Assembly: GCA_022616235.1 (NCBI GenBank) | Contig: JAKEFC010000025.1 | Coordinates: forward strand, 1 to 16,935 | Length of the DNA stretch: 16,935 nucleotides | Reading direction: 5' to 3' | Source of the DNA: Planctomycetota bacterium | Lineage (GTDB): Bacteria; Planctomycetota; UBA8108; UBA1146; JAKEFC01 | Shown: one piece after another, positions 757 to 16,935 of the stretch | Position numbering within the stretch: the first letter of the stretch is position 1 | How the letters are laid out: each line of letters starts with the position of its first letter | Notes under the pieces: generated by a model | Seen by the model: the letters and a program-made list of their open reading frames with translations, nothing else | Told to the model about the DNA's origin: nothing | Database searches by the model: none | Made by a program: the position numbers and the translations under genes

Positions 757-1299
757 ATGTTCCTCGCCTGCGCCGCGATCGGCATGGTGCTGCTCGTCGT
801 GCAAGTCGTGATGATGGTCATCGGCCTCGACAACGTCGATGACCCGAGCGACACGGCGTTCTCCGTGGACGATGCCGCCGGCGGCGACGCCTTCTTCGGC
901 TACCTCTCGCTGAAGACCGTGGTCGCGTTCCTCGCGTTCTTCGGACTCACCGGCCTCGCGGTCGAGAATGCCGCCTGGGCGTCTGCCACGTGGGTGAAGC
1001 TCGCGGTCGCCTCCGCCGCCGGATTGCTCGCGTTCCTCGGCGTCGCCTACCTCATGAAGAGCTTCATGAAGCTGCAATCGCAGGGGAACGTGGAGCTGAA
1101 GAACGCCGTAGGCCAGCAGGGGATCGTCTATCTCACGATCCCGGCCTATCGCGCGGGGATGGGACAAGTCACGGTCGTGGTGCAGCAGCGCACCATGCAA
1201 ATCAAAGCGATCACACAAGGGACAGAATTGAAGACCGGCGTTCCGATTCGCGTCGTGGGCCAACATGGCGCCGACGTCGTCGAAGTCGCCGCCGTGTAG
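757..1299 (+). CDS. NfeD/YqiJ-like membrane protein (partner of SPFH/flotillin proteins)
   Basis: Hydrophobic N-terminal TM segment, an acidic stretch (DNVDDPSD), further TM helices, and a C-terminal soluble beta-rich tail (GQVTVVVQQRTMQIKAI...GVPIRVVGQHGADVVEV) typical of the NfeD OB-fold. Sits immediately upstream of a flotillin gene, as in E. coli yqiJ-yqiK. Confidence 0.7.
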   Translation: MFLACAAIGMVLLVVQVVMMVIGLDNVDDPSDTAFSVDDAAGGDAFFGYLSLKTVVAFLAFFGLTGLAVENAAWASATWVKLAVASAAGLLAFLGVAYLMKSFMKLQSQGNVELKNAVGQQGIVYLTIPAYRAGMGQVTVVVQQRTMQIKAITQGTELKTGVPIRVVGQHGADVVEVAAV

Positions 1300-1384: not shown

Positions 1385-3118
1385 ATGGAAGCTGTCGGTT
1401 TTTTCCTGGCCCAAATGAACTCACAGGCGCTTGGCGCCATGGTCATCGCGCTCGTTCTTTTTGGCGCCTTGTTCCTGTTCTTCCTCGCGAAACGCTACAA
1501 GCGCTGCCCGCCGAACCGCGTGCTCGTGATCTACGGCAAGGTCCGCGCCGGCACCTCGGCGCGCTGTCTCCACGGCGGCGGCGCGTTCGTCTGGCCGCTG
1601 ATCCAGAACTATTCCTATCTCAGCCTCGACCCCCTGCAGATCGAGATCCCGCTGAGCGGCGCGCTCTCCGCCGAGAACATCCGCATCAACGTACCGAGCG
1701 TCTTCACCGTGGCGGTCGGCACGACGGATGAACTGATGCAGAGCGCCGCGCAGCGCTTGCAGGGGCTCTCCCCCACGGAGATTTCCCAGCAGGGCCGCGA
1801 CATCATCTTCGGGCAGCTCCGGCAAGTGATCGCGTCGATGGGGATCGAGGACATCAACCGCGACCGCGACAAATTCCTGAGCAAGGTCCAATCGTCGCTC
1901 GAGCCGGAGCTGAACAAGATCGGTCTCGTGCTCATCAACGTGAACATCACGGACATCACGGATGAGTCGGGATACATCGAGGCGATCGGGCGCAAGGCTG
2001 CGTCCGAGGCGGTGCAATCCGCCGCGATCGACGTCGCGCTGCAAGAGAAGCGCGGCGCGATCGGCGTCGCCGCCGCGAAGCGCGACCAGGACATCAGCGT
2101 CGCGCAGGCCGAGCGTGACCTGCAAGTCGGGACGACGACCGCGCAGCGCGAGCAGGCGGTCGAGGTCGCCCGCCTCGCGAAAGAGCGCGCGGTCGGCGAG
2201 CAGCAGGCCGCCTTCGAGCGCGATTCGCAGATCAAGGTGGCGGAGCGGGAGATGAGGGTCGCGGTCGCGAACGCGAATGCCTCGGCCGTCTCCGGCGAGA
2301 ACGAAGCGAAGGCCGTCATCGCGAACGCGAACGCGCAGCTCCGCATCAAGGAAGCGGAAGCGTACCAGGTCTCCGAGGTGCGGAAGCGCGAAGCCGAGGC
2401 CGCGGTCCTCGAAGCGCAGTACAAGGCGCAGGCGCGCCAGGCGCTCGCCGAGTCCACGAAGATCGAGGCGGAGCAGCGGGCGCAGCTCGAGGCCGCCGCG
2501 CGCGCGATCAAAGCGAAGATCACCGTCGACGCCGAGGCGGAGGCGGATGCGCGCCGCATCCACGCGCAAGGGCAGGCGGACGCGCGGCGCATCGAGGCGG
2601 AAGCGCAAGCGCAGGCGACCTTCGTCAATCTCGAGGCTCAGGCGCGCGGCCAGTTCGAAATCCTGCGCCGGAAGGCGGAGGGCCTGCGCGAGCTGGTGGC
2701 GAGCTGCGGCGGCGCGCAGAACGCCTTTCAGTTGATGATGCTCGAGCACCTCGACCACCTCGCGGAAACCGCCGCCTCCGCGATCTCGAACGTCAAGTTC
2801 GACAAGATCGTCGTGTGGGACGGCGGCGCGGAGAACGGCGGCGCCGCTGGATTCGTGAAGCGCATGGGCTCCATGCTGCCGCCCATGATGAATCTCATGA
2901 AGGACATAGGCGGCGTGCAGATGCCGGAATTCCTCGGGAAGATGGTGGAAGGAGAGGGCGCGGGCCCGGGCGCCGGGCCGAGCGCCGGCGCCGGCGCCGG
3001 CACGGGCGCCGCACCGCCGCATGCGGGACCGCCGCCGGCCGCGCCGCCGCCGCAAGCGCCGCCTGCATCCACGGGCACGGCCCCTGGCGGCGCGAAGCCC
3101 GGCGGCAAGGGGCACTAG
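1385..3118 (+). CDS. flotillin-like SPFH/band-7 protein (YqiK/FloT family) with an Ala/Gly/Pro-rich C-terminal tail
   Basis: GAAGGAG RBS 6 nt before ATG 1385. N-terminal TM anchor, then an SPFH core (RVLVIYGKVRAG...FVWPLIQNYSYLSLDPLQIEIPL...), then a long EA-rich coiled-coil with flotillin-type repeats (ADARRIHAQGQADARRIEAEAQAQA). The tail GAGPGAGPSAGAGAGTGAAPPHAGPPPAAPPPQAPP is low-complexity. Confidence 0.85.
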   Translation: MEAVGFFLAQMNSQALGAMVIALVLFGALFLFFLAKRYKRCPPNRVLVIYGKVRAGTSARCLHGGGAFVWPLIQNYSYLSLDPLQIEIPLSGALSAENIRINVPSVFTVAVGTTDELMQSAAQRLQGLSPTEISQQGRDIIFGQLRQVIASMGIEDINRDRDKFLSKVQSSLEPELNKIGLVLINVNITDITDESGYIEAIGRKAASEAVQSAAIDVALQEKRGAIGVAAAKRDQDISVAQAERDLQVGTTTAQREQAVEVARLAKERAVGEQQAAFERDSQIKVAEREMRVAVANANASAVSGENEAKAVIANANAQLRIKEAEAYQVSEVRKREAEAAVLEAQYKAQARQALAESTKIEAEQRAQLEAAARAIKAKITVDAEAEADARRIHAQGQADARRIEAEAQAQATFVNLEAQARGQFEILRRKAEGLRELVASCGGAQNAFQLMMLEHLDHLAETAASAISNVKFDKIVVWDGGAENGGAAGFVKRMGSMLPPMMNLMKDIGGVQMPEFLGKMVEGEGAGPGAGPSAGAGAGTGAAPPHAGPPPAAPPPQAPPASTGTAPGGAKPGGKGH

Positions 3119-3161: not shown

Positions 3162-4163
3162 ATGAAGATGCATGACGATGGAGGAATCGCCACGCCGAAC
3201 AACGAAGGGCACCGCTCCAACGGCGGGGCAACGCACTATCGCGCCTACGGCATCACGATCGCTTCCGAGATCGATCTGCCGGAGTTGCCGCGCGCCCCCG
3301 CCGGCGCCGGGAGCGTCGCGGATCTCACGATCCGCCTCGGCACCGTCGATGCGAGCGACGCGGCGCCGGCCGCGGCGGGGAGCCGCTTCTGGATCCGCGG
3401 CGGCGATGCGTGCCACGCTTACAAGGGCGCCGGAGCATTCCTCGCCCGCGCAGGCGCGGAGATCATCGTGGATCCGCTCCCCGGCGTCGCCGCGGAGGTC
3501 ATCCGCCTCTCGCTCCTCGGCCCCGTGCTCGCGCTCGCGCTCCATCAGCGCGGCCTTTTCCTCCTCCACGCGAGCGCCGTCGCGGCTCCGCGCGGAACCG
3601 GCGCGATCGTCCTCGCGGGAGCGTCGGGGGCAGGCAAGTCGACCGCCGCGGCGCTCCTCTGCCGGAACGGCTACGCGCTCGTGGCGGACGATGTGACGGC
3701 GCTCGCTCCGAGCCCCGCGGGCGTGCAGGTCCTGCCGGGCTATCCGCAGTGCAAGCTCTGGCGCGATGCCTACGAGGCGCTCGGCTATGCGGAGGAGGAA
3801 CTCGCGCCGATGAATCCGGCGTACGACAAGCGCGCGCTCCGCACCGCGAGTCACTTCTGCGCGCAACCGCTCCCGCTCGGCGGGATCTGCATCCTCGACG
3901 TCGGGGAGCAGCTCGCGTACGAAGCGGTGCCGCCGCAACAGGGTTTCGCCGAGGTCATGCGCAACTGGTACGGCGCCCGCTTCGGAAGCGGTCTCTTCCA
4001 GGCGCTCGATCGCGAGCTGCACCTCCGCCACGCCGCCGCGGTCGCCGCGAGCGCGCCGATCGTCCGCCTCACGCGCCCGCGCCTCGGCCTCGCCGACCCC
4101 GCCTTCGGCGGCCGCTTCGCCGCCGCCATCGCGCGCGCCTTCGCCGCTGGGCGTCCCGCCTGA
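3162..4163 (+). CDS. HPr kinase/phosphorylase C-terminal-domain-like kinase; predicted lasso peptide C-terminal Ser kinase
   Basis: P-loop GASGAGKSTAAALLCRNGYALVADDV matches the HprK C-domain (GxSGxGKS...lvaDD). The N-terminal ...YRAYGITIASEIDLPELP resembles lasso-associated HprK homologues. Both downstream precursors end in Ser. Start ATG 3162 (or 3168); the upstream in-frame ORF extension is Arg-rich junk. Confidence 0.8.
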   Translation: MKMHDDGGIATPNNEGHRSNGGATHYRAYGITIASEIDLPELPRAPAGAGSVADLTIRLGTVDASDAAPAAAGSRFWIRGGDACHAYKGAGAFLARAGAEIIVDPLPGVAAEVIRLSLLGPVLALALHQRGLFLLHASAVAAPRGTGAIVLAGASGAGKSTAAALLCRNGYALVADDVTALAPSPAGVQVLPGYPQCKLWRDAYEALGYAEEELAPMNPAYDKRALRTASHFCAQPLPLGGICILDVGEQLAYEAVPPQQGFAEVMRNWYGARFGSGLFQALDRELHLRHAAAVAASAPIVRLTRPRLGLADPAFGGRFAAAIARAFAAGRPA

Positions 4164-4253
4164 CGCGTTCCCCCCGCCGTGATAGATTATCGTCGCAGAG
4201 CGCCTGGCCGCACTTCACGCCTCGCATCGAGACGGGAGCGAAACACGCACGCC

Positions 4254-4547
4254 ATGAGTGAAAGCCTTTCGCGAAACAGCGTCGTGACGAAGCTGCGCGA
4301 GCAGATCGCCGCGAGTCTCGGCGCCGAGGCCGTGATCCTGCACCTCGAGAGCGGGATCTACTACGGGCTCAACGAAGTCGGCGCGCGCATCTGGAGCCTC
4401 GTGGAGGAGCCGCGCACGGTGCAGGCGCTCATCGATGCCATCGTGGCAGAGTACGACGTGGAGCCCGAGCAATGCGCGCGCGACGTGGAGACGCTGCTCG
4501 GCCGCCTCGTAGAGAAGCGGCTCATCTCGATCTCGCCCCCCAAGTGA
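4254..4547 (+). CDS. PqqD-family RiPP recognition element (lasso B1 protein)
   Basis: 97 aa with the PqqD-like signature (AVILHLESGIYYGLNEVGARIWSLVEEPRTVQALIDAIVAEYDV). The size is typical of B1/RRE proteins. The GTG 4179 extension would only add an Arg-rich N-terminus. Confidence 0.8.
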   Translation: MSESLSRNSVVTKLREQIAASLGAEAVILHLESGIYYGLNEVGARIWSLVEEPRTVQALIDAIVAEYDVEPEQCARDVETLLGRLVEKRLISISPPK

Positions 4548-4631
4548 TCCTAGAGCCCATTTCAAAACCTGGCCGTGGGCCAGAGGTCGAGCGAGAGGCG
4601 CGCGCGCAAGGAGAGCCGAAGAGTCGTATTA

Positions 4632-6605
4632 ATGGAGAAATACGGCGATGAGGTTCGACGCAGCGCGCGTGCCTCGCAGCCGACCGAAGCCAGGCCAGGT
4701 ATTGAAATTGGCTCGCAGAAATCGCTCCGAAAGTCGGCGCCCTTGATCGGGATCGCAGGCATCGTCCGCCGCGGCGGCCCCCCACTCGATCCCGCGGATG
4801 AAGAGCGCCTGCTCGCGGCGATCGCGCGCGGCGCGCGGCGCGAAGCGCCGGCGTTTCGCGGCACCGATGCGTTCCTGTGCGGCGGGGAGCGCGCCCCCGA
4901 GCCCGGCGTCATCTTCTTCTCCGGCCGCCTCGACGATCTCGCGGGTTTGCAGAGGAGTCTCGGTGAGGGCGCGCCGCCGGTCGCCGGCCCGGCGAATGAC
5001 GCGGCGTTCGCGGGCGCCGCGTTCGCAAAGTGGGGGGAACGGACCCCGGAATTCCTCCTCGGCGACTTCGCGCTCGCCGCGTTCGATGCGAGCGAGCGGC
5101 GCCTCTTTCTCGCGCGCGATGCGATCGGCGTCATCCCCGTGTACTACCATCTCACGCCGGCGCGCTTCGCGTTCGCGACGGAGTTGGGAGCGCTCCTCGC
5201 GCTTCCTTGGATCCCGCGCGAGCCCGACGAGCTTCGCATCGCGGACTACGTCGCCGTCTACTTCGACGACCGAGAAGCGACCTTCTATCGCGCGATCCGC
5301 CGCCTGCCGCCCGCGCACGCGCTCGCCGTCCAGCCGGCGGCCGCCCGCACGCGCCGCTACTGGGCGCTGGATCCCGCGCGCGAGATCGTGCCCGCCTCCG
5401 ACGAAGAAGCCGCCGAGCGCTTTCGCGCGCTCTTCTGCGACGCGGTGGGGGCGCGCTTGCGGCGGGCGGCGCACCCCGCGCTGCTCTTGAGCGGCGGGCT
5501 CGATTCCGCATCGATACTCTGCGCGGCCCAGGGGTTCTCTCCGAGCGCGGCGCCGCTCGCGACCTTCAGCGCCGTGTTTCCATCGCAATCGCGCGCCGAC
5601 GAGACGCGCGACCTCGATCTTCTGCTCGCCGAAGTGCGCGCGGCGCCCACGATCGTGCGCGCCGATCTGCTGAGTCCGCTCGGCGCTTCCCGCGAGATGC
5701 TCCGCCACCTGCGCCAGCCGTATCACGCGCCGAATCTCTTCGTGTATTGGAGCCTCGCGCGCGCGGCGCACGAGGCGGGAGTGACGGCGCTCCTCGACGG
5801 CGTGGACGGCGACACGACCGTGAGCCACGGATTCGAGTACCTGGCGGAATTGTTCCGCGGCGCGCGCTGGCTCGCGTGGCTTCGCGAGACGCGAAGCCTC
5901 GCAAGGCGGCTCGGCACCGCGACGCTCCCTTTCCTCTGGCGCTTCGGCGTGCTGCCCTCCCTGACGCGCTTCGCCGGCGAGCGCTATGGCGCTTTCGGCG
6001 CGGGCGCGCCGGGGACGCCGCCTCCGCTCCTCGACCGCGACTGCGCGGAGCGCGTGGAGTGGCGCGCGAAGCGCGAGGATGCGATCGCCGCGCTCGGCGC
6101 CGCGCCGCCGACCTTGCGCGCCGCTCATCATCGCCAGCTCGCGAGCGGCCTCATCCCGTTCTACCTCGAAGTGAATCACCTGCTCTCGGCGCCGCTCGGG
6201 ATCGAGGCGCGGCATCCGTATTACGACCGGCGCTTGATCGAATACTGCCTCGCGCTACCGCCCGCGCTCCGCCTCCAGGATGGATGGGACCGGCGCGTGC
6301 AGCGGCTCGCCATGGCGGGCATGGTGCCAGAACGGGTCCGCTTGCGCTTGCGCAAGGCGCACTGGGGAAGGAACTTCGAAGAGAGCTTTCTGGTTCGCGA
6401 CCGCGGCCTGATCGAGGAGACCCTCGAGGTTTCGGCGCCGAGGCTCCGCCAATTCCTCGATTTGGGGCGGCTCCAAGCGGCGATGCACCGAACCGCAGCA
6501 GGGGGGCGCCGCGCGGACGACGTCATGGACCTCTGGGTTGCGACGACGCTGGGCCTCTGGCTCGTGTCCGAAGAGCGTGCGAGCGCTTCCACTGCCGTCG
6601 GGTAG
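4632..6605 (+). CDS. asparagine synthetase-like lasso peptide cyclase (C protein)
   Basis: N-terminal LIGIAGIV resembles the AsnB MCGIAGI motif but carries Leu in place of the nucleophilic Cys. An SGGLDS PP-loop ATP-pyrophosphatase motif is present (ALLLSGGLDSASILCAAQ). Length ~620-657 aa. Start is uncertain: ATG 4632 or TTG 4743. Confidence 0.85.
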   Translation: MEKYGDEVRRSARASQPTEARPGIEIGSQKSLRKSAPLIGIAGIVRRGGPPLDPADEERLLAAIARGARREAPAFRGTDAFLCGGERAPEPGVIFFSGRLDDLAGLQRSLGEGAPPVAGPANDAAFAGAAFAKWGERTPEFLLGDFALAAFDASERRLFLARDAIGVIPVYYHLTPARFAFATELGALLALPWIPREPDELRIADYVAVYFDDREATFYRAIRRLPPAHALAVQPAAARTRRYWALDPAREIVPASDEEAAERFRALFCDAVGARLRRAAHPALLLSGGLDSASILCAAQGFSPSAAPLATFSAVFPSQSRADETRDLDLLLAEVRAAPTIVRADLLSPLGASREMLRHLRQPYHAPNLFVYWSLARAAHEAGVTALLDGVDGDTTVSHGFEYLAELFRGARWLAWLRETRSLARRLGTATLPFLWRFGVLPSLTRFAGERYGAFGAGAPGTPPPLLDRDCAERVEWRAKREDAIAALGAAPPTLRAAHHRQLASGLIPFYLEVNHLLSAPLGIEARHPYYDRRLIEYCLALPPALRLQDGWDRRVQRLAMAGMVPERVRLRLRKAHWGRNFEESFLVRDRGLIEETLEVSAPRLRQFLDLGRLQAAMHRTAAGGRRADDVMDLWVATTLGLWLVSEERASASTAVG

Positions 6606-6737
6606 TCACCGCGCCGCCAAGCCCGGCTCCGGCAACCGAGATTCCGGCGCGCAAGTTGGGCGAGCCCTTTGCTAGGTTCCGCGCAGACGCATGGCGCCGC
6701 CACTACGCCGCGAACGACACCGAAGGGAGCCTGCCTC

Positions 6738-6929
6738 ATGACCTCCGACTTCACGAACCTACCGGCCTCCCAGAACAAGCGCCGCCCTTACCGCACTCCG
6801 GAGTTGGTCGTCCACGGGAGCATGGAAAAACTCACCGGTTGGATCGGCGGCACTTGGGGCGAATTCTTCGGCGGCACGAACGGCCTCGACCCGTTGGGAG
6901 ATGACCCCTTGGGCGGCACGGGGAGCTGA
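6738..6929 (+). CDS. lasso peptide precursor A1 (63 aa): MTSDFTNLPASQNKRRPYRTPELVVHGSMEKLT-GWIGGTWGEFFGGTNGLDPLGDDPLGGTGS
   Basis: AAGGGAG RBS 8 nt upstream. The leader carries the RRE-binding motif YxxPxLx3G (YRTPELVVHG). The core has Glu at position 9 (8 if the core starts at Trp) for isopeptide ring closure, is Gly-rich, and ends in Ser (the kinase target). It is a paralogue of the next ORF and sits right after the cyclase gene. Confidence 0.75.
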   Translation: MTSDFTNLPASQNKRRPYRTPELVVHGSMEKLTGWIGGTWGEFFGGTNGLDPLGDDPLGGTGS

Positions 6930-7183
6930 CTCTACCGTTCGACGCACCACCCTCGCGCCGAGTCGAAGTCGCGGACTTCCGCGTCGCGACAACTCCCGTG
7001 CTGCGGCTCATTTCCGAGGATCTACCTCAGCAGTTCCACAGCCGGCGGGTAGCCAGAGAGCCACCCGGCCGGTATCCTTCTTCGACCCGGACGCCCGGAG
7101 TGCGTGCGCGGCTTCGCAAACGGCCGTGCGCACCCCACTCGGCGCAATCACTACGCCGCAAACGACGAGGAATCGACTCCATC

Positions 7184-7381
7184 ATGACCACCGCCTTCAC
7201 GAGCCGTGCGAATTCCCAATGCCCGCGCCGCCCCTACCTTGCTCCGGAGCTGATCGTCCACGGGAGCATAGAGAAGCTCACCGGTTGGGTCGGTGGCCCT
7301 TGGGGCGAATTCCTCGGCGGCACGAACACCGGCTACAATCCTTGGGACGGCGATGGGCCCTGGGCCGTCACGGGCAGCTAG
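7184..7381 (+). CDS. lasso peptide precursor A2 (65 aa): MTTAFTSRANSQCPRRPYLAPELIVHGSIEKLT-GWVGGPWGEFLGGTNTGYNPWDGDGPWAVTGS
   Basis: Same leader architecture (RRPY..PEL[VI]VHGS[MI]EKLT) and same ring region (GW[IV]GG[TP]WGEF) as A1. The tail differs and is rich in bulky Tyr/Trp. It also ends in Ser. The conserved upstream element CACTACGCCGC[AG]AACGAC is shared with A1. Confidence 0.75.
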   Translation: MTTAFTSRANSQCPRRPYLAPELIVHGSIEKLTGWVGGPWGEFLGGTNTGYNPWDGDGPWAVTGS

Positions 7382-7475
7382 CAACTTCTTTCCGCGCTCG
7401 TTCCCAATCTAAGTGCAAAGACTCGACACTCCCATCGACGAGAGTCGAAACACAGCGCCAGAATCGTTGCAACCG

Positions 7476-8714
7476 ATGAATTTCGCCGCGCCGGGACTTC
7501 GCGCGGATGCGAAGTGGCTATTGGCAATCGTTTCCGTTGGGTCGGCCGCCGGCCGCATCGAGCGCTTGCGCGCGCTCGACGTGCGCGCGCTCGACGCGAC
7601 TCGCCTGCACGCGCTCGCCATGCGCCACCGCGTCGAGTCGCAGGTCGCGCGCGCGCTGGAATCTCTCCCCTGCGACCCTTCCGAAATCGCTCCCGCGGGG
7701 CTCTTGCCGGCGATTCGCGCCGCGGCGCGCGCCGAGTGCATCCACTCTTTGCGATTGACGCGCGAGCTGCTCGAGGTCGTCGCCCTCCTCGAGCAGAACT
7801 CGATCCCCGTGCTCGCTTACAAGGGGCCCGTCCTCGCCGCCGCGCTCTATGGCGCCGCCGCCGCGCGCCACTCGTGGGACCTCGACGTCCTCGTGCGGCG
7901 CGCGGACCTCGAGCGCGCGCGCGGCCTACTCCACGAGCGCGGCTACGTGCCGGAGCCGCAGCCGCCATCGCAAGCGGAGCGGGACCTGCTCGCGCTGGAT
8001 TGCGAGTGCAACCTCGACCACCCGCGCCTCGGGGTCCACCTCGAATTGCACTGGGACCTCTTCGATGAAGAGAACCGCCGCGGCCTCGATGCGGAATTCT
8101 TGTGGAAGAATGCGACGCGCGTCGAGTTTGCCGGCAGCACGGTCCTCGCGCCTTCGCCCGCGGCGATGTTCATCGTCGCTTGCGCCCACGGCGGCGAGAA
8201 GCATCGCTGGGGGCGCCTGAAATGGGTGCTGGACATCGCGCGCTTTCCCGCGGCGTATCCCGCGCTCGATTGGCCCGCGGCGCTCGCGCTCGCGGAGAGC
8301 GTGGGGCGGCGCCAAGCCGTGCTCGAAGGCATCTATCTCGCCACGCACTTGCTCGGCGCCGAATTTCCTCCCGCGCTCGCGGCAGCCGCGGAGCGGGACG
8401 AGTGGGTGGCGGCGAACGCGGCGCACACGCGCGGGCGCCTCTTCCGGGATGACGCCGACTTTCCCGGCTTCGGCGAGTGGCGCGCCTACCTGCACGCCGC
8501 GCGCGCGGAAGCGGAAGCTGATGCAGGCAAGAACGCCGGGCTCCGCGAGAAGCTTCGCACGCTCGCGCTCTATCTGCGCACGGTGTTCACGCCCGATTGG
8601 GCGGACCGCCGCCGCCATCGCGTGCCGCGGCGCCTCGGTTTCCTGCGCTACTTGCTCCGCGCGAGAGAACTCGCGCACACCTACCGCGCGGACCTCACCG
8701 CGCGCCTCAAGTAG
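7476..8714 (+). CDS. nucleotidyltransferase-family protein (Pol-beta superfamily; lasso-cluster-associated 'N' protein)
   Basis: Pol-beta NTase signature G-x(n)-DhD is present (YKGPVLAAALYGAAAARHSWDLDVLV), followed by a helical C-terminal region. Proteins of this kind co-occur with HprK-like kinases in phosphorylated-lasso clusters. Start is ATG 7476 or GTG 7413. Confidence 0.7.
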   Translation: MNFAAPGLRADAKWLLAIVSVGSAAGRIERLRALDVRALDATRLHALAMRHRVESQVARALESLPCDPSEIAPAGLLPAIRAAARAECIHSLRLTRELLEVVALLEQNSIPVLAYKGPVLAAALYGAAAARHSWDLDVLVRRADLERARGLLHERGYVPEPQPPSQAERDLLALDCECNLDHPRLGVHLELHWDLFDEENRRGLDAEFLWKNATRVEFAGSTVLAPSPAAMFIVACAHGGEKHRWGRLKWVLDIARFPAAYPALDWPAALALAESVGRRQAVLEGIYLATHLLGAEFPPALAAAAERDEWVAANAAHTRGRLFRDDADFPGFGEWRAYLHAARAEAEADAGKNAGLREKLRTLALYLRTVFTPDWADRRRHRVPRRLGFLRYLLRARELAHTYRADLTARLK

Positions 8715-12936: not shown

Positions 12937-13524
12937 ATGCGCTATCCGGCGGAGCACAAAGATCGCATGCGCAAGAAGATCGTTCGCGCGGCAGCGCGCC
13001 GCTTTCGCGGCGCGGGCAGCGAGGGCGTTCCGATCGCGGATCTCATGCGGGATCTCGACCTCACCCACGGCGGCTTCTATCGCCACTTCCAAGGAAAGGA
13101 AGAGCTGTTCGACGAAGCGCTCGCCGAGAGCATGGCACAGGTCGAAGCGCTGATGACGGCGACGGCGAATGCCGCACCGCGCGGCAAGGAGCTGGAAGCG
13201 ATCATCGACTTGTACTTGAGCCCGGCGCACTGCGCGAACGTTGCGGAAGGGTGCCCGCTCGCGGCGCTAGTGACGGAGGTGGCGCGCCATCCGAAGAGCA
13301 CCCGCGTTACGTTGAGCAATGCCGTCAAGCGCCATGCCGCCGCGGTGGCGCGGTTCATGCCGGGAGAGACGGAAGCCGAGCGCCAGGGCACGGCGATGGT
13401 GCTCTTCTCCGGCATGGCGGGGGCGCTGAACCTCGCGCGCGCGGTGTCGGATGATGCGCTTCGAAGGAAGATCCTCGCGCGCGCGCGCGACTTTTACGCC
13501 GGCGCGGTTCGCGGGAAGCCATGA
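12937..13524 (+). CDS. TetR/AcrR-family transcriptional regulator
   Basis: N-terminal HTH (RKKIVRAAARRFRGAGSEGVPIADLMRDLDLTHGGFYRHFQGKEELF) is the TetR signature. ~195 aa. Sits upstream of an efflux operon. Confidence 0.85.
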   Translation: MRYPAEHKDRMRKKIVRAAARRFRGAGSEGVPIADLMRDLDLTHGGFYRHFQGKEELFDEALAESMAQVEALMTATANAAPRGKELEAIIDLYLSPAHCANVAEGCPLAALVTEVARHPKSTRVTLSNAVKRHAAAVARFMPGETEAERQGTAMVLFSGMAGALNLARAVSDDALRRKILARARDFYAGAVRGKP

Positions 13525-13602
13525 GGCGTTTTTTTTGGCGCAGATGGGATTTCGATCATCATCTCATCGGGAGCGCCGGCGCCGCCGAGAGGACGCGGAC
13601 CG

Positions 13603-14739
13603 ATGAACTTCGTCGCCCTGCGAATGCTCACGGGCGATCGCGCCAAGTACTTCGGCCTGGTGTTCGCGATCGCGTTCTGCACGTTCCTGCTCGAGAACCA
13701 GACCACGATCTTCGCGAGCATCCTGAAGCGTACCGCCAGCCAGATCCTCGATGTCACGGACGCCGAGGTCTGGGTCATGGATCAGAAGACCGAATACTGG
13801 GAGCAGACGAAGGCCCTGAAGGACACCGACCTCACCCGCGTCCGCGGAGTGCCGGGGGTGCTCTGGGCCGTGCGGCTCTTCAAGGGCAACCCCGTCGCGC
13901 GCACGCGCTCCGGCAAGTTCGCGGTGTCGTTCCTGATCGGCCTCGACGACGCCACGCTCGCCGGCGCGCCCCGGAAAATGCTGCTCGGGTCGTGGGAGCG
14001 CCTGCGCGAACCCGACTCGGTGATCATCGACGAGGCGGGCTACGTCCTCCTCTATCCCGGCGAGCCGCTCGAGCTGGGGCGTACCCTGGAGATGAACGAC
14101 CACCTGGTCACCATCGTCGGGATCTCCGATGCCTCTGCGCCTTTCGTGAGCCTGCCCGTGATGCACGCGCGCTACAGCAAGGCGATCGACTTTCTCGGCC
14201 GCGAGCGCACGCAGCTTTCCTTCGTCATCGCGCGCCCGGAGCCGGGGGTGACACCCGCGGCGCTCACCGAGCGGATCCAAGCGACGACTGGACTAAAAGC
14301 GCGCACGACCGGCGAGTTCATGTGGGACTGCGTGCGCTACTACCTCCGCAACACCGGCATTCCCGTGAATTTCGGGATCACGATCGCCGTGGCCCTGATC
14401 GTCGGCGCCGTCGTCGGCGGGCAGACCTTCTATCTCTTCACGATCGAGAACCTGAAGCAATTCGGAGCGCTGAAGGCGATCGGCGTCACGAATCCCCGCC
14501 TCATCGGCATGATCCTCTTGCAGGCGTTCAGCGCGGGGATCCTGGGCTTCGCGCTCGGAACCGGGATGGCGGCGACCTTCTTCGAGATCACGAGTCACAT
14601 GCTCGCCACGCGTGGCATCGCGCTCCTCTGGCAGTGCGTCGCGTTGACCGGCGCGGCGATCCTCGGCGTCGTGATCGTCGCCAGCATCCTCAGCATCCGG
14701 CGCGTCCTCGTGCTCGAGCCGGCGGCGGTGTTCCGATGA
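13603..14739 (+). CDS. ABC transporter permease, FtsX/MacB/DevC family
   Basis: N-terminal TM helix, a large periplasmic domain, then three C-terminal TM helices with the FtsX-like pattern (GALKAIGVTNPRLIGMILLQAF...). Its stop overlaps the ATPase start (ATGA). Confidence 0.85.
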   Translation: MNFVALRMLTGDRAKYFGLVFAIAFCTFLLENQTTIFASILKRTASQILDVTDAEVWVMDQKTEYWEQTKALKDTDLTRVRGVPGVLWAVRLFKGNPVARTRSGKFAVSFLIGLDDATLAGAPRKMLLGSWERLREPDSVIIDEAGYVLLYPGEPLELGRTLEMNDHLVTIVGISDASAPFVSLPVMHARYSKAIDFLGRERTQLSFVIARPEPGVTPAALTERIQATTGLKARTTGEFMWDCVRYYLRNTGIPVNFGITIAVALIVGAVVGGQTFYLFTIENLKQFGALKAIGVTNPRLIGMILLQAFSAGILGFALGTGMAATFFEITSHMLATRGIALLWQCVALTGAAILGVVIVASILSIRRVLVLEPAAVFR

Positions 14740-15500
14740 TCGGCGCGGCGAACGGCCACGATTTCGCGGTGTCGTGCGCGGGCGTCCGGAAGTCCTTCGG
14801 CGCGGGGGAGACCAAGACCGAGGCGCTCCGCGGCGTCGACTTCGACGCCCGCTTCGGCCAGCTCACGTTCCTCGTCGGGCCGAGCGGCTGCGGCAAGACG
14901 ACCCTCATCTCGATCATCGCGGGGCTCCTCGATCGCTCGAGCGGGGAATTGGCTGTGCTCGGCCTACGCCCCGACGAGTTGTCGGGCGGGGAGCGCGTGC
15001 GGTTTCGGCGCCGGAATCTGGGATTCATCTTCCAGCAGTACAACCTGCTGCCGTCGCTCACGGCGGCCGAGAACGTCGCCGTGCCGCTCCTCGCCGCCGG
15101 CGTGCCGCGCAGGCAGGCGGTGCGGCGCGCGACGGACCTGTTGGCGCGGCTCGGGCTCGAGAATCGCGCCGCGGCGCGTCCCGCCACGCTCTCCGGCGGC
15201 CAACAGCAGCGGGTCGCGATCGCGCGCGCCCTCGTCCACGAGCCGCGCCTCATCGTGTGCGACGAGCCCACCGCCGCGCTCGATCACGAGAATGGAGAGG
15301 CGGTGCTCCAGTTGCTCGCCTCGACCGCGGTGAATCCGGATCGCGCGGTGATCGTGGTCACGCACGATTCCCGCGTATTCCACCACGCGCACCGAATCGC
15401 GCGCATGGACGACGGACGGATCGTCGATGTCGCGAAGCAGGCGCGCGCCTCGCTGTCGCCTGCGGCAAACGGCGCCGAGACCCACGAGGAGGACCGATGA
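14736..15500 (+). CDS. ABC transporter ATP-binding protein (MacB/LolD/DevA-like)
   Basis: Walker A GPSGCGKTT, Q-loop, ABC signature LSGGQQQRVAIARAL, Walker B LIVCDEPT, H-loop VTHD. Confidence 0.9.
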   Translation: MIGAANGHDFAVSCAGVRKSFGAGETKTEALRGVDFDARFGQLTFLVGPSGCGKTTLISIIAGLLDRSSGELAVLGLRPDELSGGERVRFRRRNLGFIFQQYNLLPSLTAAENVAVPLLAAGVPRRQAVRRATDLLARLGLENRAAARPATLSGGQQQRVAIARALVHEPRLIVCDEPTAALDHENGEAVLQLLASTAVNPDRAVIVVTHDSRVFHHAHRIARMDDGRIVDVAKQARASLSPAANGAETHEEDR

Positions 15501-16447
15501 TGAAGCGTAGCGTGTTGCCGTTCCTTGGAATACTCGCCGCCGCTTGGGCGACCTTCGCGATCATCCGGTCGAAGCCGGCGCGCGTCGAAACCGACCCTCC
15601 GAGCCCGCCGCCGGTCTCGGAGTACGGCCATACCGTCGCGGCGGTCGGCCTGATCGAAGCGAACACCGAGAACATCTCCATCGGAACGCCGCTCGGCGGA
15701 GTCGTGGCGCGCGTCTACGTAACGGCGGGGCGCACGGTGAACGAAAACGAGCCGCTCTTCGAACTCGATACGCGGCATCTCCGCGCGGAGCTGGCGGTGC
15801 GCGAGGATGCGTGTGCCGTCGCACGCGCGCGCGTGGCGGTCGCGGCGGCGCAGCTCGCGGACCTCGAGCGGCAGCTCGAGTTCTTCGAGCAGATCAGCGA
15901 CAAGCGCGCGGTGTCCGTCGAGGAGCTGACGCGCCGTCGCTCCGCGGTCGAGACGGCCGCGGCGTCGCTCGAGCAGGCGCGCGCGGAGGCCCTGGCGGCG
16001 AATTCCTCGCGCGACGCCGTGGGCGTCGAAATAGAACGCAGCACGGTGCGCGCGCCGATGGACGCGGAGGTGCTCCAGGTGAAGGTGCGCCCCGGCGAGT
16101 ACGCCCCAGCGGCCGCGATGCCGGCTCCGCTCCTCCTGCTCGGCCGCGCGAAGCCGCTCCATGTCCGCGTCGACGTGGACGAGCACGAAGGGTGGCGCGT
16201 GCGCGCCGGCGCCGCCGCCACCGGGCACGTGCGCGGCAACGCGGATCTAAAGACGTCGCTCCGCTTCGTGCGCATGGAGCCGTTCGTCGTGCCCAAGCGT
16301 TCGCTCACGGGCGACAGCACGGAACGCGTCGACACGCGCGTCCTCCAGATCATCTACCTCATCGAGCGCGACGACCTCCCGCTCTTCGTCGGCCAGCAGA
16401 TGGACGTCTTCATCGACGGCGCCCCCCCCAACGGCCGCGCACATTGA
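15497..16447 (+). CDS. HlyD-family periplasmic adaptor / membrane-fusion protein (DevB/MacA-like)
   Basis: N-terminal TM anchor (VLPFLGILAAAWATFAII), a coiled-coil hairpin (ELAVREDACAVARARVAVAAAQLADLERQLEFFEQ...), and C-terminal beta domains. GAGGAGGA RBS. Start overlaps the ATPase stop. Confidence 0.8.
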   Translation: MMKRSVLPFLGILAAAWATFAIIRSKPARVETDPPSPPPVSEYGHTVAAVGLIEANTENISIGTPLGGVVARVYVTAGRTVNENEPLFELDTRHLRAELAVREDACAVARARVAVAAAQLADLERQLEFFEQISDKRAVSVEELTRRRSAVETAAASLEQARAEALAANSSRDAVGVEIERSTVRAPMDAEVLQVKVRPGEYAPAAAMPAPLLLLGRAKPLHVRVDVDEHEGWRVRAGAAATGHVRGNADLKTSLRFVRMEPFVVPKRSLTGDSTERVDTRVLQIIYLIERDDLPLFVGQQMDVFIDGAPPNGRAH

Positions 16448-16460
16448 GACGCGGCGCGGC

Positions 16461-16727
16461 TCACGATTTCACAGCCGCGAGCCGGATCTGCACGCGGTGC
16501 TCGAGTGCCTTCGCGATGCGCTGAATCGTGCCAAGCTTGATGGTGCGATCGGCTTCCTCGAGTCGAGATACGGCGCTCTGAGTAGTGCCAACGAGCTTTG
16601 CGAGTTCTGCCTGTGTAAGTCCTTGTCGCTCGCGAGCTTCGCGAAGAATATCGCCGACGGTTCGCGCGGCTCGAACTTCATCGACCAGTTCGAGGAACCC
16701 GGACTCGTTGCCCCAGGCATGCAGCAT
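16461..16727 (-). CDS. HigA-like XRE-family HTH antitoxin
   Basis: HTH motif LTQAELAKLVGTTQSAVSRLE. ~88 aa. Lies immediately downstream of a Gp49/HigB-like toxin fragment. Alternative GTG starts at 16760 or 16793. Confidence 0.65.
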   Translation of the reverse strand: MLHAWGNESGFLELVDEVRAARTVGDILREARERQGLTQAELAKLVGTTQSAVSRLEEADRTIKLGTIQRIAKALEHRVQIRLAAVKS

Positions 16728-16806
16728 GATCTTGGAAGCCGCCCGCGGCTTCCTGGTCACCGGCGGCGCGCCAGCCTTGCGTTTCTTGGTCACGATCGTG
16801 CGGTTT

Positions 16807-16935
16807 CTACGACTTCGTGTGCCTGCGTGGGTTCGCCTCGAAGTTCGCTTTGCGCGTGATGGCCCGTGCGAGATCGGCACTTGGGATCTTTGCTTCCTTT
16901 GTCAGCGCATGCAGCAGCACCGCGACGCTCGCACC
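16807..16935 (-). CDS. RelE/ParE-superfamily toxin (Gp49/HigB-like), C-terminal 42 aa only; the gene continues beyond the window edge
   Basis: The translated C-terminus GASVAVLLHALTKEAKIPSADLARAITRKANFEANP matches the Gp49/HigB signature ...VLLHGFiKKtqKTPxxEieLAxxR.... Toxin-upstream-of-antitoxin order is typical for HigBA. Confidence 0.55.
   Translation of the reverse strand, partial: GASVAVLLHALTKEAKIPSADLARAITRKANFEANPRRHTKS

Follow-up and report, generated by a model that had tools for sequence, protein, structure and literature searches.

We describe an operon for a lasso peptide that lacks, in cis, the gene of its leader peptidase. The operon lies on contig JAKEFC010000025.1 (assembly GCA_022616235.1) from a metagenome-assembled genome (MAG) of a Planctomycetota bacterium, which was examined over its whole length of 16,935 bp and is called here the window. 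Six genes on the forward strand (3162-8714) make up a single compact unit in the order K-B1-C-A1-A2-N: an HprK-like kinase (K), a PqqD-type recognition element of ribosomally synthesised and post-translationally modified peptides (RiPP recognition element, RRE; B1), the macrolactam cyclase (C), two precursors (A1 and A2) and a tailoring enzyme of nucleotidyltransferase (NTase) fold (N). The absence of the cysteine peptidase B2 in cis is real and was confirmed. The best reading is that the operon is a functional, reduced member of the phospho- and glyco-tailored lasso family to which paeninodin, pseudomycoidin and the bsf product belong. It is quite possible, if somewhat short of probable, that its leader is removed in trans, by a cysteine peptidase of the B2 type whose gene lies elsewhere in the genome, as an orphan or within a second lasso cluster.

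Search for B2 in the Window

Genes were called from the periodicity of the G+C content at third codon positions (GC3) together with the calling of open reading frames (ORFs), and scanned against Pfam and NCBIfam. The preliminary description of this DNA had claimed that no B2 is encoded in or around the cluster, and had named a B2 mis-called in a shadow frame as the finding that would speak against this. Both points were examined in all six frames, and the claim was borne out. PF13471, the transglutaminase-like (Cys-His-Asp) family of B2, had no match at E<=0.1 in any of the real ORFs, and it was also absent from 134 additional stop-to-stop segments of at least 55 aa, in alternative frames or unassigned regions, where just three spurious families appeared. 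A clade-specific hidden Markov model (HMM) was then built on the B2 of locus L004, the closest B2-bearing relative, and its homologues. Its best match in the six frames had E>=11, whereas the B2 of L004, used as positive control, reached 1.5e-67 (and 1.1e-20 in Pfam). The two nearest relatives without B2 gave nothing better than E=1. The signature C...[AGS]H[AVSTG]W, which describes the invariant Cys...AHAW of B2, was in no frame of the window. The gap between B1 and C cannot hold the gene, because it measures 196 nt and a B2 gene takes ~420-460 nt.

No ORF of the window matched a peptidase family in Pfam, alternative frames included. On this basis the ORFs 19-399 and 757-1299, the lipoprotein-like ORF and the TPR/BNR protein of 716 aa were rejected as candidates for a hidden peptidase. 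The earlier survey was thus right that none of the ORFs is B2-like, but it left unmentioned ORF 757-1299 (+), which by its GC3 is a real gene. A B2 called by NCBI on a 1.4-kb contig (P0141) was considered as a stray B2 of the source MAG; it belongs to GCA_025491055.1, where it lies beside its own PqqD gene. A metagenome scan for orphan B2 genes returned just three uninformative contigs of ~2.5 kb.

Distribution of B2 among Related Loci

Contigs with homologues and 80 genome loci around relatives of the cyclase were annotated with iterated HMMs for B1, B2, C, K, N and the exporter D. The census of B2 was limited to the 60 loci in which C is flanked on each side by 4 kb or more (visible flanks of ~4-10 kb), and B2 was present in 51 of them and absent from nine. 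The canonical order B1-B2-C-A-K-D-N was found in Cyanobacteria, Acidobacteriota, Chloroflexota, Mesorhizobium, Methanobacteriaceae and others.

In a neighbour-joining tree of the cyclases, the operon under study groups with L003 and L001, all of them B2-less, in one clade that is sister to the B2-bearing L004, a 7.2-Mb Planctomycetota chromosome with B1-B2. A further B2-less member is L086. Since L001, L003 and L086 are independent contigs and all show B1-C-A-N without B2, the absence is not an accident of one contig. The full set B1-B2-C-A-K-N-ABC_tran-ABC2_membrane is carried by L087, L088 and L089. Taking into account that the B2-less cyclases group together, that their sister L004 bears B2 and that the next relatives carry the full set, B2 was lost in cis once, in the ancestor shared by the operon under study, L001, L003 and L086, a small clade of Planctomycetota that has since retained the B1-C-A-N core. 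B1, C and N are intact throughout this clade, with identities of 41-57% for B1, 46-65% for C and 38-67% for N, and because B1 is as conserved as C the operon does not seem to be decaying. Beyond the cluster genes, no gene is common to the four B2-less loci, and no candidate protease is conserved in their neighbourhood.

The other B2-less loci (L008, L057, L042, L071, L016, L032 and L037) are scattered across the tree, which implies that loss or dispersal of B2 recurs. Other genes of the pathway are dispersed as well. K lies 6 kb away from the operon in L003, and B1-B2 lie 1-5 kb from C in L054 and L058. L001, a 208-kb Planctomycetota contig, has N and a precursor ending in Ser with no HprK-like kinase within +-10 kb of C, so that either its K acts in trans or its N has a different substrate requirement. 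L032 and L037, the latter on a 2.5-Mb contig, are arranged as K-C-A with neither B1 nor B2 within +-10 kb, and keep YxxPxL...T leaders. In the complete genome of the cyanobacterium Calothrix sp. PCC 7716 (L021; AP025018.1, 2268-18744), a B1-C-A-K-D unit without B2 lies directly upstream of a complete B1-B2-C-A-K-D-N-N, and a single B2 may serve two cyclases there. Methanogenic archaea were also seen to carry lasso clusters of the kinase type (L032, L035, L037, L054 and L058, from Methanobacteriaceae or Methanobacterium MAGs).

Precursors and Cleavage Junction

A1 (leader MTSDFTNLPASQNKRRPYRTPELVVHGSMEKLTG, core WIGGTWGEFFGGTNGLDPLGDDPLGGTGS) and A2 (leader ending in RRPYLAPELIVHGSIEKLTG, core WVGGPWGEFLGGTNTGYNPWDGDGPWAVTGS) follow the consensus ...PY[RL][TA]PEL[VI]VHGS[MI]EKLTG/W[IV]GG[TP]WGE..., where the slash separates leader and core. 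Both leaders are canonical, with 34 aa and the motif YxxPxLx3Gx5Tx, and both precursors end in ...TGS; the NCBIfam lasso-leader matches of A1 were weak. Lasso precursors are recognised by the leader motif and by an Asp or Glu at core position 7-9, and both features were found; the predicted macrolactam ring is Trp1-Glu8. A1 and A2 are a tandem duplication (6640-7385) that reaches ~35 nt 5' of the ATG into the 5' untranslated region, where CACTACGCCGC[G/A]AACGAC is conserved. Their leaders and first 17 core residues are nearly identical, and their tails differ (GLDPLGDDPLGGTGS vs TGYNPWDGDGPWAVTGS).

The junction reads ...EKLTG/W[IV]GG[PT]WGEF in the B2-less clusters (the operon under study, L001, L003 and L086), ...EK[LI]TG/W[IV]GGPWGEF...S in the B2-bearing L087, L088 and L089, and ...ELTQ/WIGGRWGEF in the B2-bearing L004. 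Thr(-2) is a known determinant of processing (PMC10368454). Considering that this residue and the junction are unchanged between clusters with and without B2, the comparison argues for the same kind of peptidase in both.

Enzymes of the Operon

The six ORFs are intact and show strong GC3 periodicity. K matched PF07475 with a score (E=6e-5) that falls short of the gathering threshold, and TIGR04352 (HprK_rel_A) at 1e-7; with the family HMM iterated over 86 loci it reached E=6e-92, and its P-loop GASGAGKST is kept. The presence of an HprK-related kinase together with precursors that end in Ser places the predicted product among the phosphorylated lasso peptides. B1 was recognised by PF05402 at 1.2e-23 and by NF033536 (lasso_PqqD_Bac) at 1.7e-21 (76.2 bits, where the curated cut-off is 80). 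Its identity to the B1 proteins of the remaining B2-less clusters is 41-47%, a range similar to that of C (46%).

C matched NF033535 at 1.2e-132 (443.7 bits, where the curated cut-off is 525), PF00733 at 5.8e-37 and PF13537. It is a full-length, Asn-synthase-like cyclase of 620 aa, counted from the start called by NCBI (P0001), with the N-terminal GATase-like domain (GATase_7/GATase_6 at residues 112-209 of the long ORF) and the ATP motif SGGLDS. Its N-terminus is LIGIAG (MIGIAG when the start codon is read as Met), without Cys1 and hence without a Cys nucleophile. NCBI gives the nearest homologues the name lasso cyclase, and the best of them are 40-45% identical.

N (412 aa, called by NCBI as P0121) matched PF14907 at 4.4e-52. 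It keeps the KG...DxD motif (KG...DLDVLV) and the invariant His and Asp residues; K116, G117, D135, D137, H192, H238, H243 and D253 are invariant across its PF14907 relatives. A profile search of the PDB sequences with N gave no match. Its AlphaFold2 model (pLDDT, the predicted local distance difference test, 88.7) resembles nucleotidyltransferase folds only, with FKRP, LnuA and ANT(2'')-Ia as the best PDB folds at E ~2e-3, in agreement with what was reported for PsmN (PMC6993621). Among these structural neighbours, FKRP is a CDP-ribitol phosphotransferase, and LnuA and ANT(2'') are antibiotic nucleotidyltransferases. The possibility that N is an FKRP/LicD-like transferase adding hexose-phosphate without K was also considered, and it is contradicted by the result of the psmK deletion (PMC6993621).

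Comparison with Known Systems

The characterised clusters of the kinase/NTase type, pade, psm and bsf, all encode B1, B2 and D (PMC5067487; PMC6993621; PMC10368454), whereas the operon under study natively lacks B2 and D. The bsf cluster of Bradymonas sediminis FA350 (bsfA, B1, B2, C, D, K, N) shares with it the YxxPxL leader, a discrete B1, C, an HprK-type K and a predicted nucleotidyltransferase N; it differs in its B2 and its ABC transporter D, in having Ile(-2) where Thr(-2) is found here, and in the phosphorylation of Ser3, while A1 and A2 end in Ser (PMC10368454). In the psm and paeninodin (pade) systems of Bacillota, the precursor is phosphorylated by K at its C-terminal Ser (PMC6993621; PMC5067487). 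PsmN, of the same NTase family as N and with an ANT(2'')-like fold, adds a hexose to the phosphate, and this hexosylation requires PsmK, that is, prior phosphorylation (PMC6993621). The core sequences are unrelated, with Ala1-Glu9 in psm and the predicted Trp1-Glu8 here.

Much closer are the B2-bearing sisters L087, L088, L089 and L004, uncharacterised metagenomic loci whose precursors are near-identical to A1 and A2. Their C is 41-44% identical to that of the operon, and B1 is 37-39% identical in L004 and L087 (the B1 of L089 is cut by the contig end). For N the identity is 36-37% in L087 and L089 and 28% in L004, whose copy is shorter (364 aa) and stands 6 kb from the cluster. Unlike the operon under study, these sisters have overlapping B1-B2 genes and a split ABC_tran + ABC2_membrane exporter.

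Two known kinds of B2-less cluster were also compared. The natural C-A-K locus of Stanieria cyanosphaera PCC 7437 has no B genes (PMC6993621), and so differs from this operon in lacking B1 too. Triculamin-type clusters have no leader, a C-terminal follower, a cyclase without the N-terminal domain and no B2 (bioRxiv 10.64898/2026.07.03.736388); the operon does not belong to this type, considering that it keeps a canonical leader, B1 and the full-length cyclase with its GATase-like domain.

Leader Removal without B2 in Cis

The preliminary description had offered three explanations, namely a B2 encoded elsewhere, a housekeeping protease and an altered enzymology. This set was well chosen, but the analogy that it drew with pseudomycoidin as a B2-less system does not hold: the psm cluster encodes psmB1 and psmB2, which are functional and merely dispensable in the heterologous hosts E. 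coli and B. subtilis (PMC6993621). In the pathway proposed here, B1 would bind the YxxPxL leader, K would phosphorylate the C-terminal Ser of the precursors, the leader would be cut after ...EKLT-G, C would close the Trp1-Glu8 macrolactam and N would add a further group to the phosphate; we infer this order of steps. The contig would additionally have lost the split ABC-2 exporter that the relatives keep. Cleavage by a B2 in trans is favoured because the junction and Thr(-2) are unchanged, because the genes of the pathway are dispersed in the family, and because Calothrix has a B2-less unit beside a complete one. A B1 kept without B2 also has a precedent, considering that BsfB1 speeds phosphorylation by BsfK as well (PMC10368454), a role of B1 independent of B2. 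Several points weigh against it. No B2 in trans was seen, the data covering one contig of the source MAG. Four independent contigs are without B2 in their visible flanks, which for L001 and L003 means +-10 kb within contigs of 208 kb and 96 kb. Activation of B2 normally depends on the cognate B1 with the leader bound to it, and a foreign B2 would have to be compatible with the B1 of this operon. Pseudomycoidin, finally, was matured without B1 and B2 in two unrelated hosts (PMC6993621).

The last point supports the main rival, a native maturation independent of B2 in which a cellular protease or aminopeptidase of no dedicated function removes the leader and C cyclises the released core. With psmCAD alone, E. 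coli and B. subtilis both made pseudomycoidin that was properly processed and closed into its ring, and the Stanieria locus exists without B genes (PMC6993621). The nine B2-less loci of the census, among them archaeal K-C-A loci with one on a 2.5-Mb contig, and the persistence of the B2-less state across ~46% divergence of the cyclase are also in its favour. We nevertheless consider it rather unlikely, given that ...EKLTG/W and Thr(-2) are the same in the B2-bearing sisters, with no sign of re-tooling for another protease, that leader removal was the yield-limiting step in the psm system without B1 and B2 (PMC6993621), and that neither a conserved protease beside the four B2-less clusters nor any peptidase family in the ORFs of the window was found. 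It is more doubtful still that N, C or K has taken over the cleavage. N directly follows the precursor gene or genes in the B2-less clade, and in some Firmicutes an NTase is fused to B2, which points to a functional association (PMC8498205); however, N is not fused to B2 here, the hhalign probability against B2 was 0.2% for N and 0.1% for C, and the model of N resembles nucleotidyltransferases alone. Moreover, N of the B2-bearing sister L087 (410 aa) matches the N of the operon in length and in its C-terminal motif, the N-terminus of C offers no Cys nucleophile, and no Cys of N is conserved across the B2-less clade. This makes such a takeover very improbable. Somewhere near the main rival in plausibility, and likewise doubtful, is the broader idea that the Planctomycetota clade is permanently without a dedicated peptidase, so that native maturation would rely on a general protease or on an unrecognised activity of K, C or N, with B1 serving the kinase and the cyclase only.

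Two other explanations were considered. The operon could be a non-functional remnant after the loss of B2 and the exporter, as might be thought from the two usually co-encoded functions that are missing from the contig and from the position of the cluster, wedged between housekeeping genes. This is improbable, since the ORFs are intact, C, K and N retain their catalytic motifs, the precursor was duplicated with both copies intact and the same B2-less order, with B1 as conserved as C, is found in three other lineages. That a misassembly or a binning error deleted B2 or split it away is hardly credible. The record is indeed a short MAG contig of 16.9 kb, but B1 and C are contiguous, with coherent frames across their gap, and the C-A1-A2-N stretch was reproduced in an independent Logan assembly of SRR16971108. 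The B1-C adjacency also recurs in L001/L002, L003, L086, L008, L057 and L042, all from different studies.

Exporter and MacB-Type Pump

It had been claimed that no fused exporter of the McjD type accompanies the cluster and that the only ABC exporter nearby is a TetR-linked pump of the MacB type, without fusion of transmembrane domain (TMD) and nucleotide-binding domain (NBD). Both statements agree with our results: Pfam scans and the family HMM of D found no fused TMD-NBD exporter and no ABC2_membrane protein in the window, and the HMM matched the NBD of the MacB-type ATPase only. A dedicated ABC exporter is common, though not essential, in canonical lasso clusters. The choice of McjD as the expected exporter was less fortunate, since the nearest relatives use the split ABC_tran + ABC2_membrane (ABC-2) type, which is kept in L001, L003 and L086 and missing here. 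The sole ABC system of the contig consists of TetR, an FtsX/MacB permease, an ABC ATPase and an HlyD adaptor (12937-16447), with TetR ~4.2 kb and the pump genes ~4.9 kb downstream of the operon. A function of this pump in export finds no support, because three opposite-strand genes intervene and the pump is not conserved beside related clusters; it is probably unrelated to the lasso cluster.

TetR-regulated tripartite efflux pumps were observed near three B2-less clusters, namely L001 (1-4315), L086 (343-7067) and the one under study. Those of L001 and L086 are of the resistance-nodulation-division (RND) type (TetR-OEP-MFP-ACR_tran) and adjoin the ABC-2 exporter genes, while that of the window is of the MacB type. 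The association with B2-less clusters is weak, because the pumps belong to different families and L001 is closely related to L086.

Gene Map of the Window

The features are collected in Table 1. The flanks are those given in the preliminary description, flotillin upstream and a convergent rsmD downstream. ORF 757-1299, directly 5' of flotillin, codes for a membrane protein whose C-terminal domain is rich in beta structure; it had no significant Pfam match (best E 0.023, PF24063/DUF7363), and by its sequence and position it resembles an NfeD-type partner of flotillin. No family was matched by the ORF at 19-399 (or 109-399) in the Pfam scan. The 3' ends of N and rsmD share 8 nt (8707-8714), and no hairpin resembling a terminator was detected between these convergent genes. 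Rfam and tRNA scans of the window were empty, and a scan for promoters and terminators gave matches at chance level.

Table 1. Features of the 16,935-bp window and the evidence for each.
Feature	Position	Strand	Evidence
NfeD-like membrane protein, 180 aa, outside cluster	757-1299	+	GC3 0.9; sequence and position
Flotillin, upstream flank, outside cluster	1385-3118	+	PF01145 (Band_7) at 2.3e-27
HprK-like lasso-tailoring kinase K	3162-4163	+	Pfam, TIGRFAM, family HMM
PqqD-type RiPP recognition element B1	4254-4547	+	PF05402, NF033536
Lasso macrolactam cyclase C	4743-6605	+	NF033535, PF00733, PF13537
Precursor A1, 63 aa	6738-6929	+	Leader motif, C-terminal Ser
Precursor A2, 65 aa	7184-7381	+	Tandem duplicate of A1
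Nucleotidyltransferase-fold tailoring enzyme N (PsmN/BsfN type), 412 aa	7476-8714	+	PF14907
rsmD-type 16S rRNA methyltransferase, convergent with N	8707-~9320 (5' end approximate)	-	PF03602 at 1.4e-41
Unassigned ORF, lipoprotein-like, 545 aa	9339-10976	-	
Unassigned ORF, TPR/BNR protein, 716 aa	10688-12838	-	
TetR regulator	12937-13524	+	PF00440
FtsX/MacB permease	13603-14739	+	PF02687+PF12704
ABC ATPase	~14740-15500	+	PF00005
HlyD adaptor	~15500-16447	+	PF13437/PF16576
Helix-turn-helix (HTH) protein	16461-16880	-	

Implications for the Lasso Family

Mining tools require B2, which is regarded as a gene that defines lasso clusters, and clusters without B genes are therefore hidden from searches, as noted in the triculamin preprint (bioRxiv 10.64898/2026.07.03.736388) and by the authors of the pseudomycoidin work, who considered that the universality of B proteins may reflect a search bias by which B-less clusters were overlooked (PMC6993621). 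If the B2 of this bacterium merely lies on another contig, the finding would be ordinary. The four B2-less operons and their four B2-bearing sisters, with precursors that are virtually the same, define a natural test set. With it, one can ask whether a leader-bearing, RRE-dependent lasso pathway may natively do without a dedicated peptidase or shares a B2 in trans. The comparison also suggests that the rules for cluster boundaries in the kinase/NTase lasso family should tolerate dispersed genes for B2, K and the exporter.

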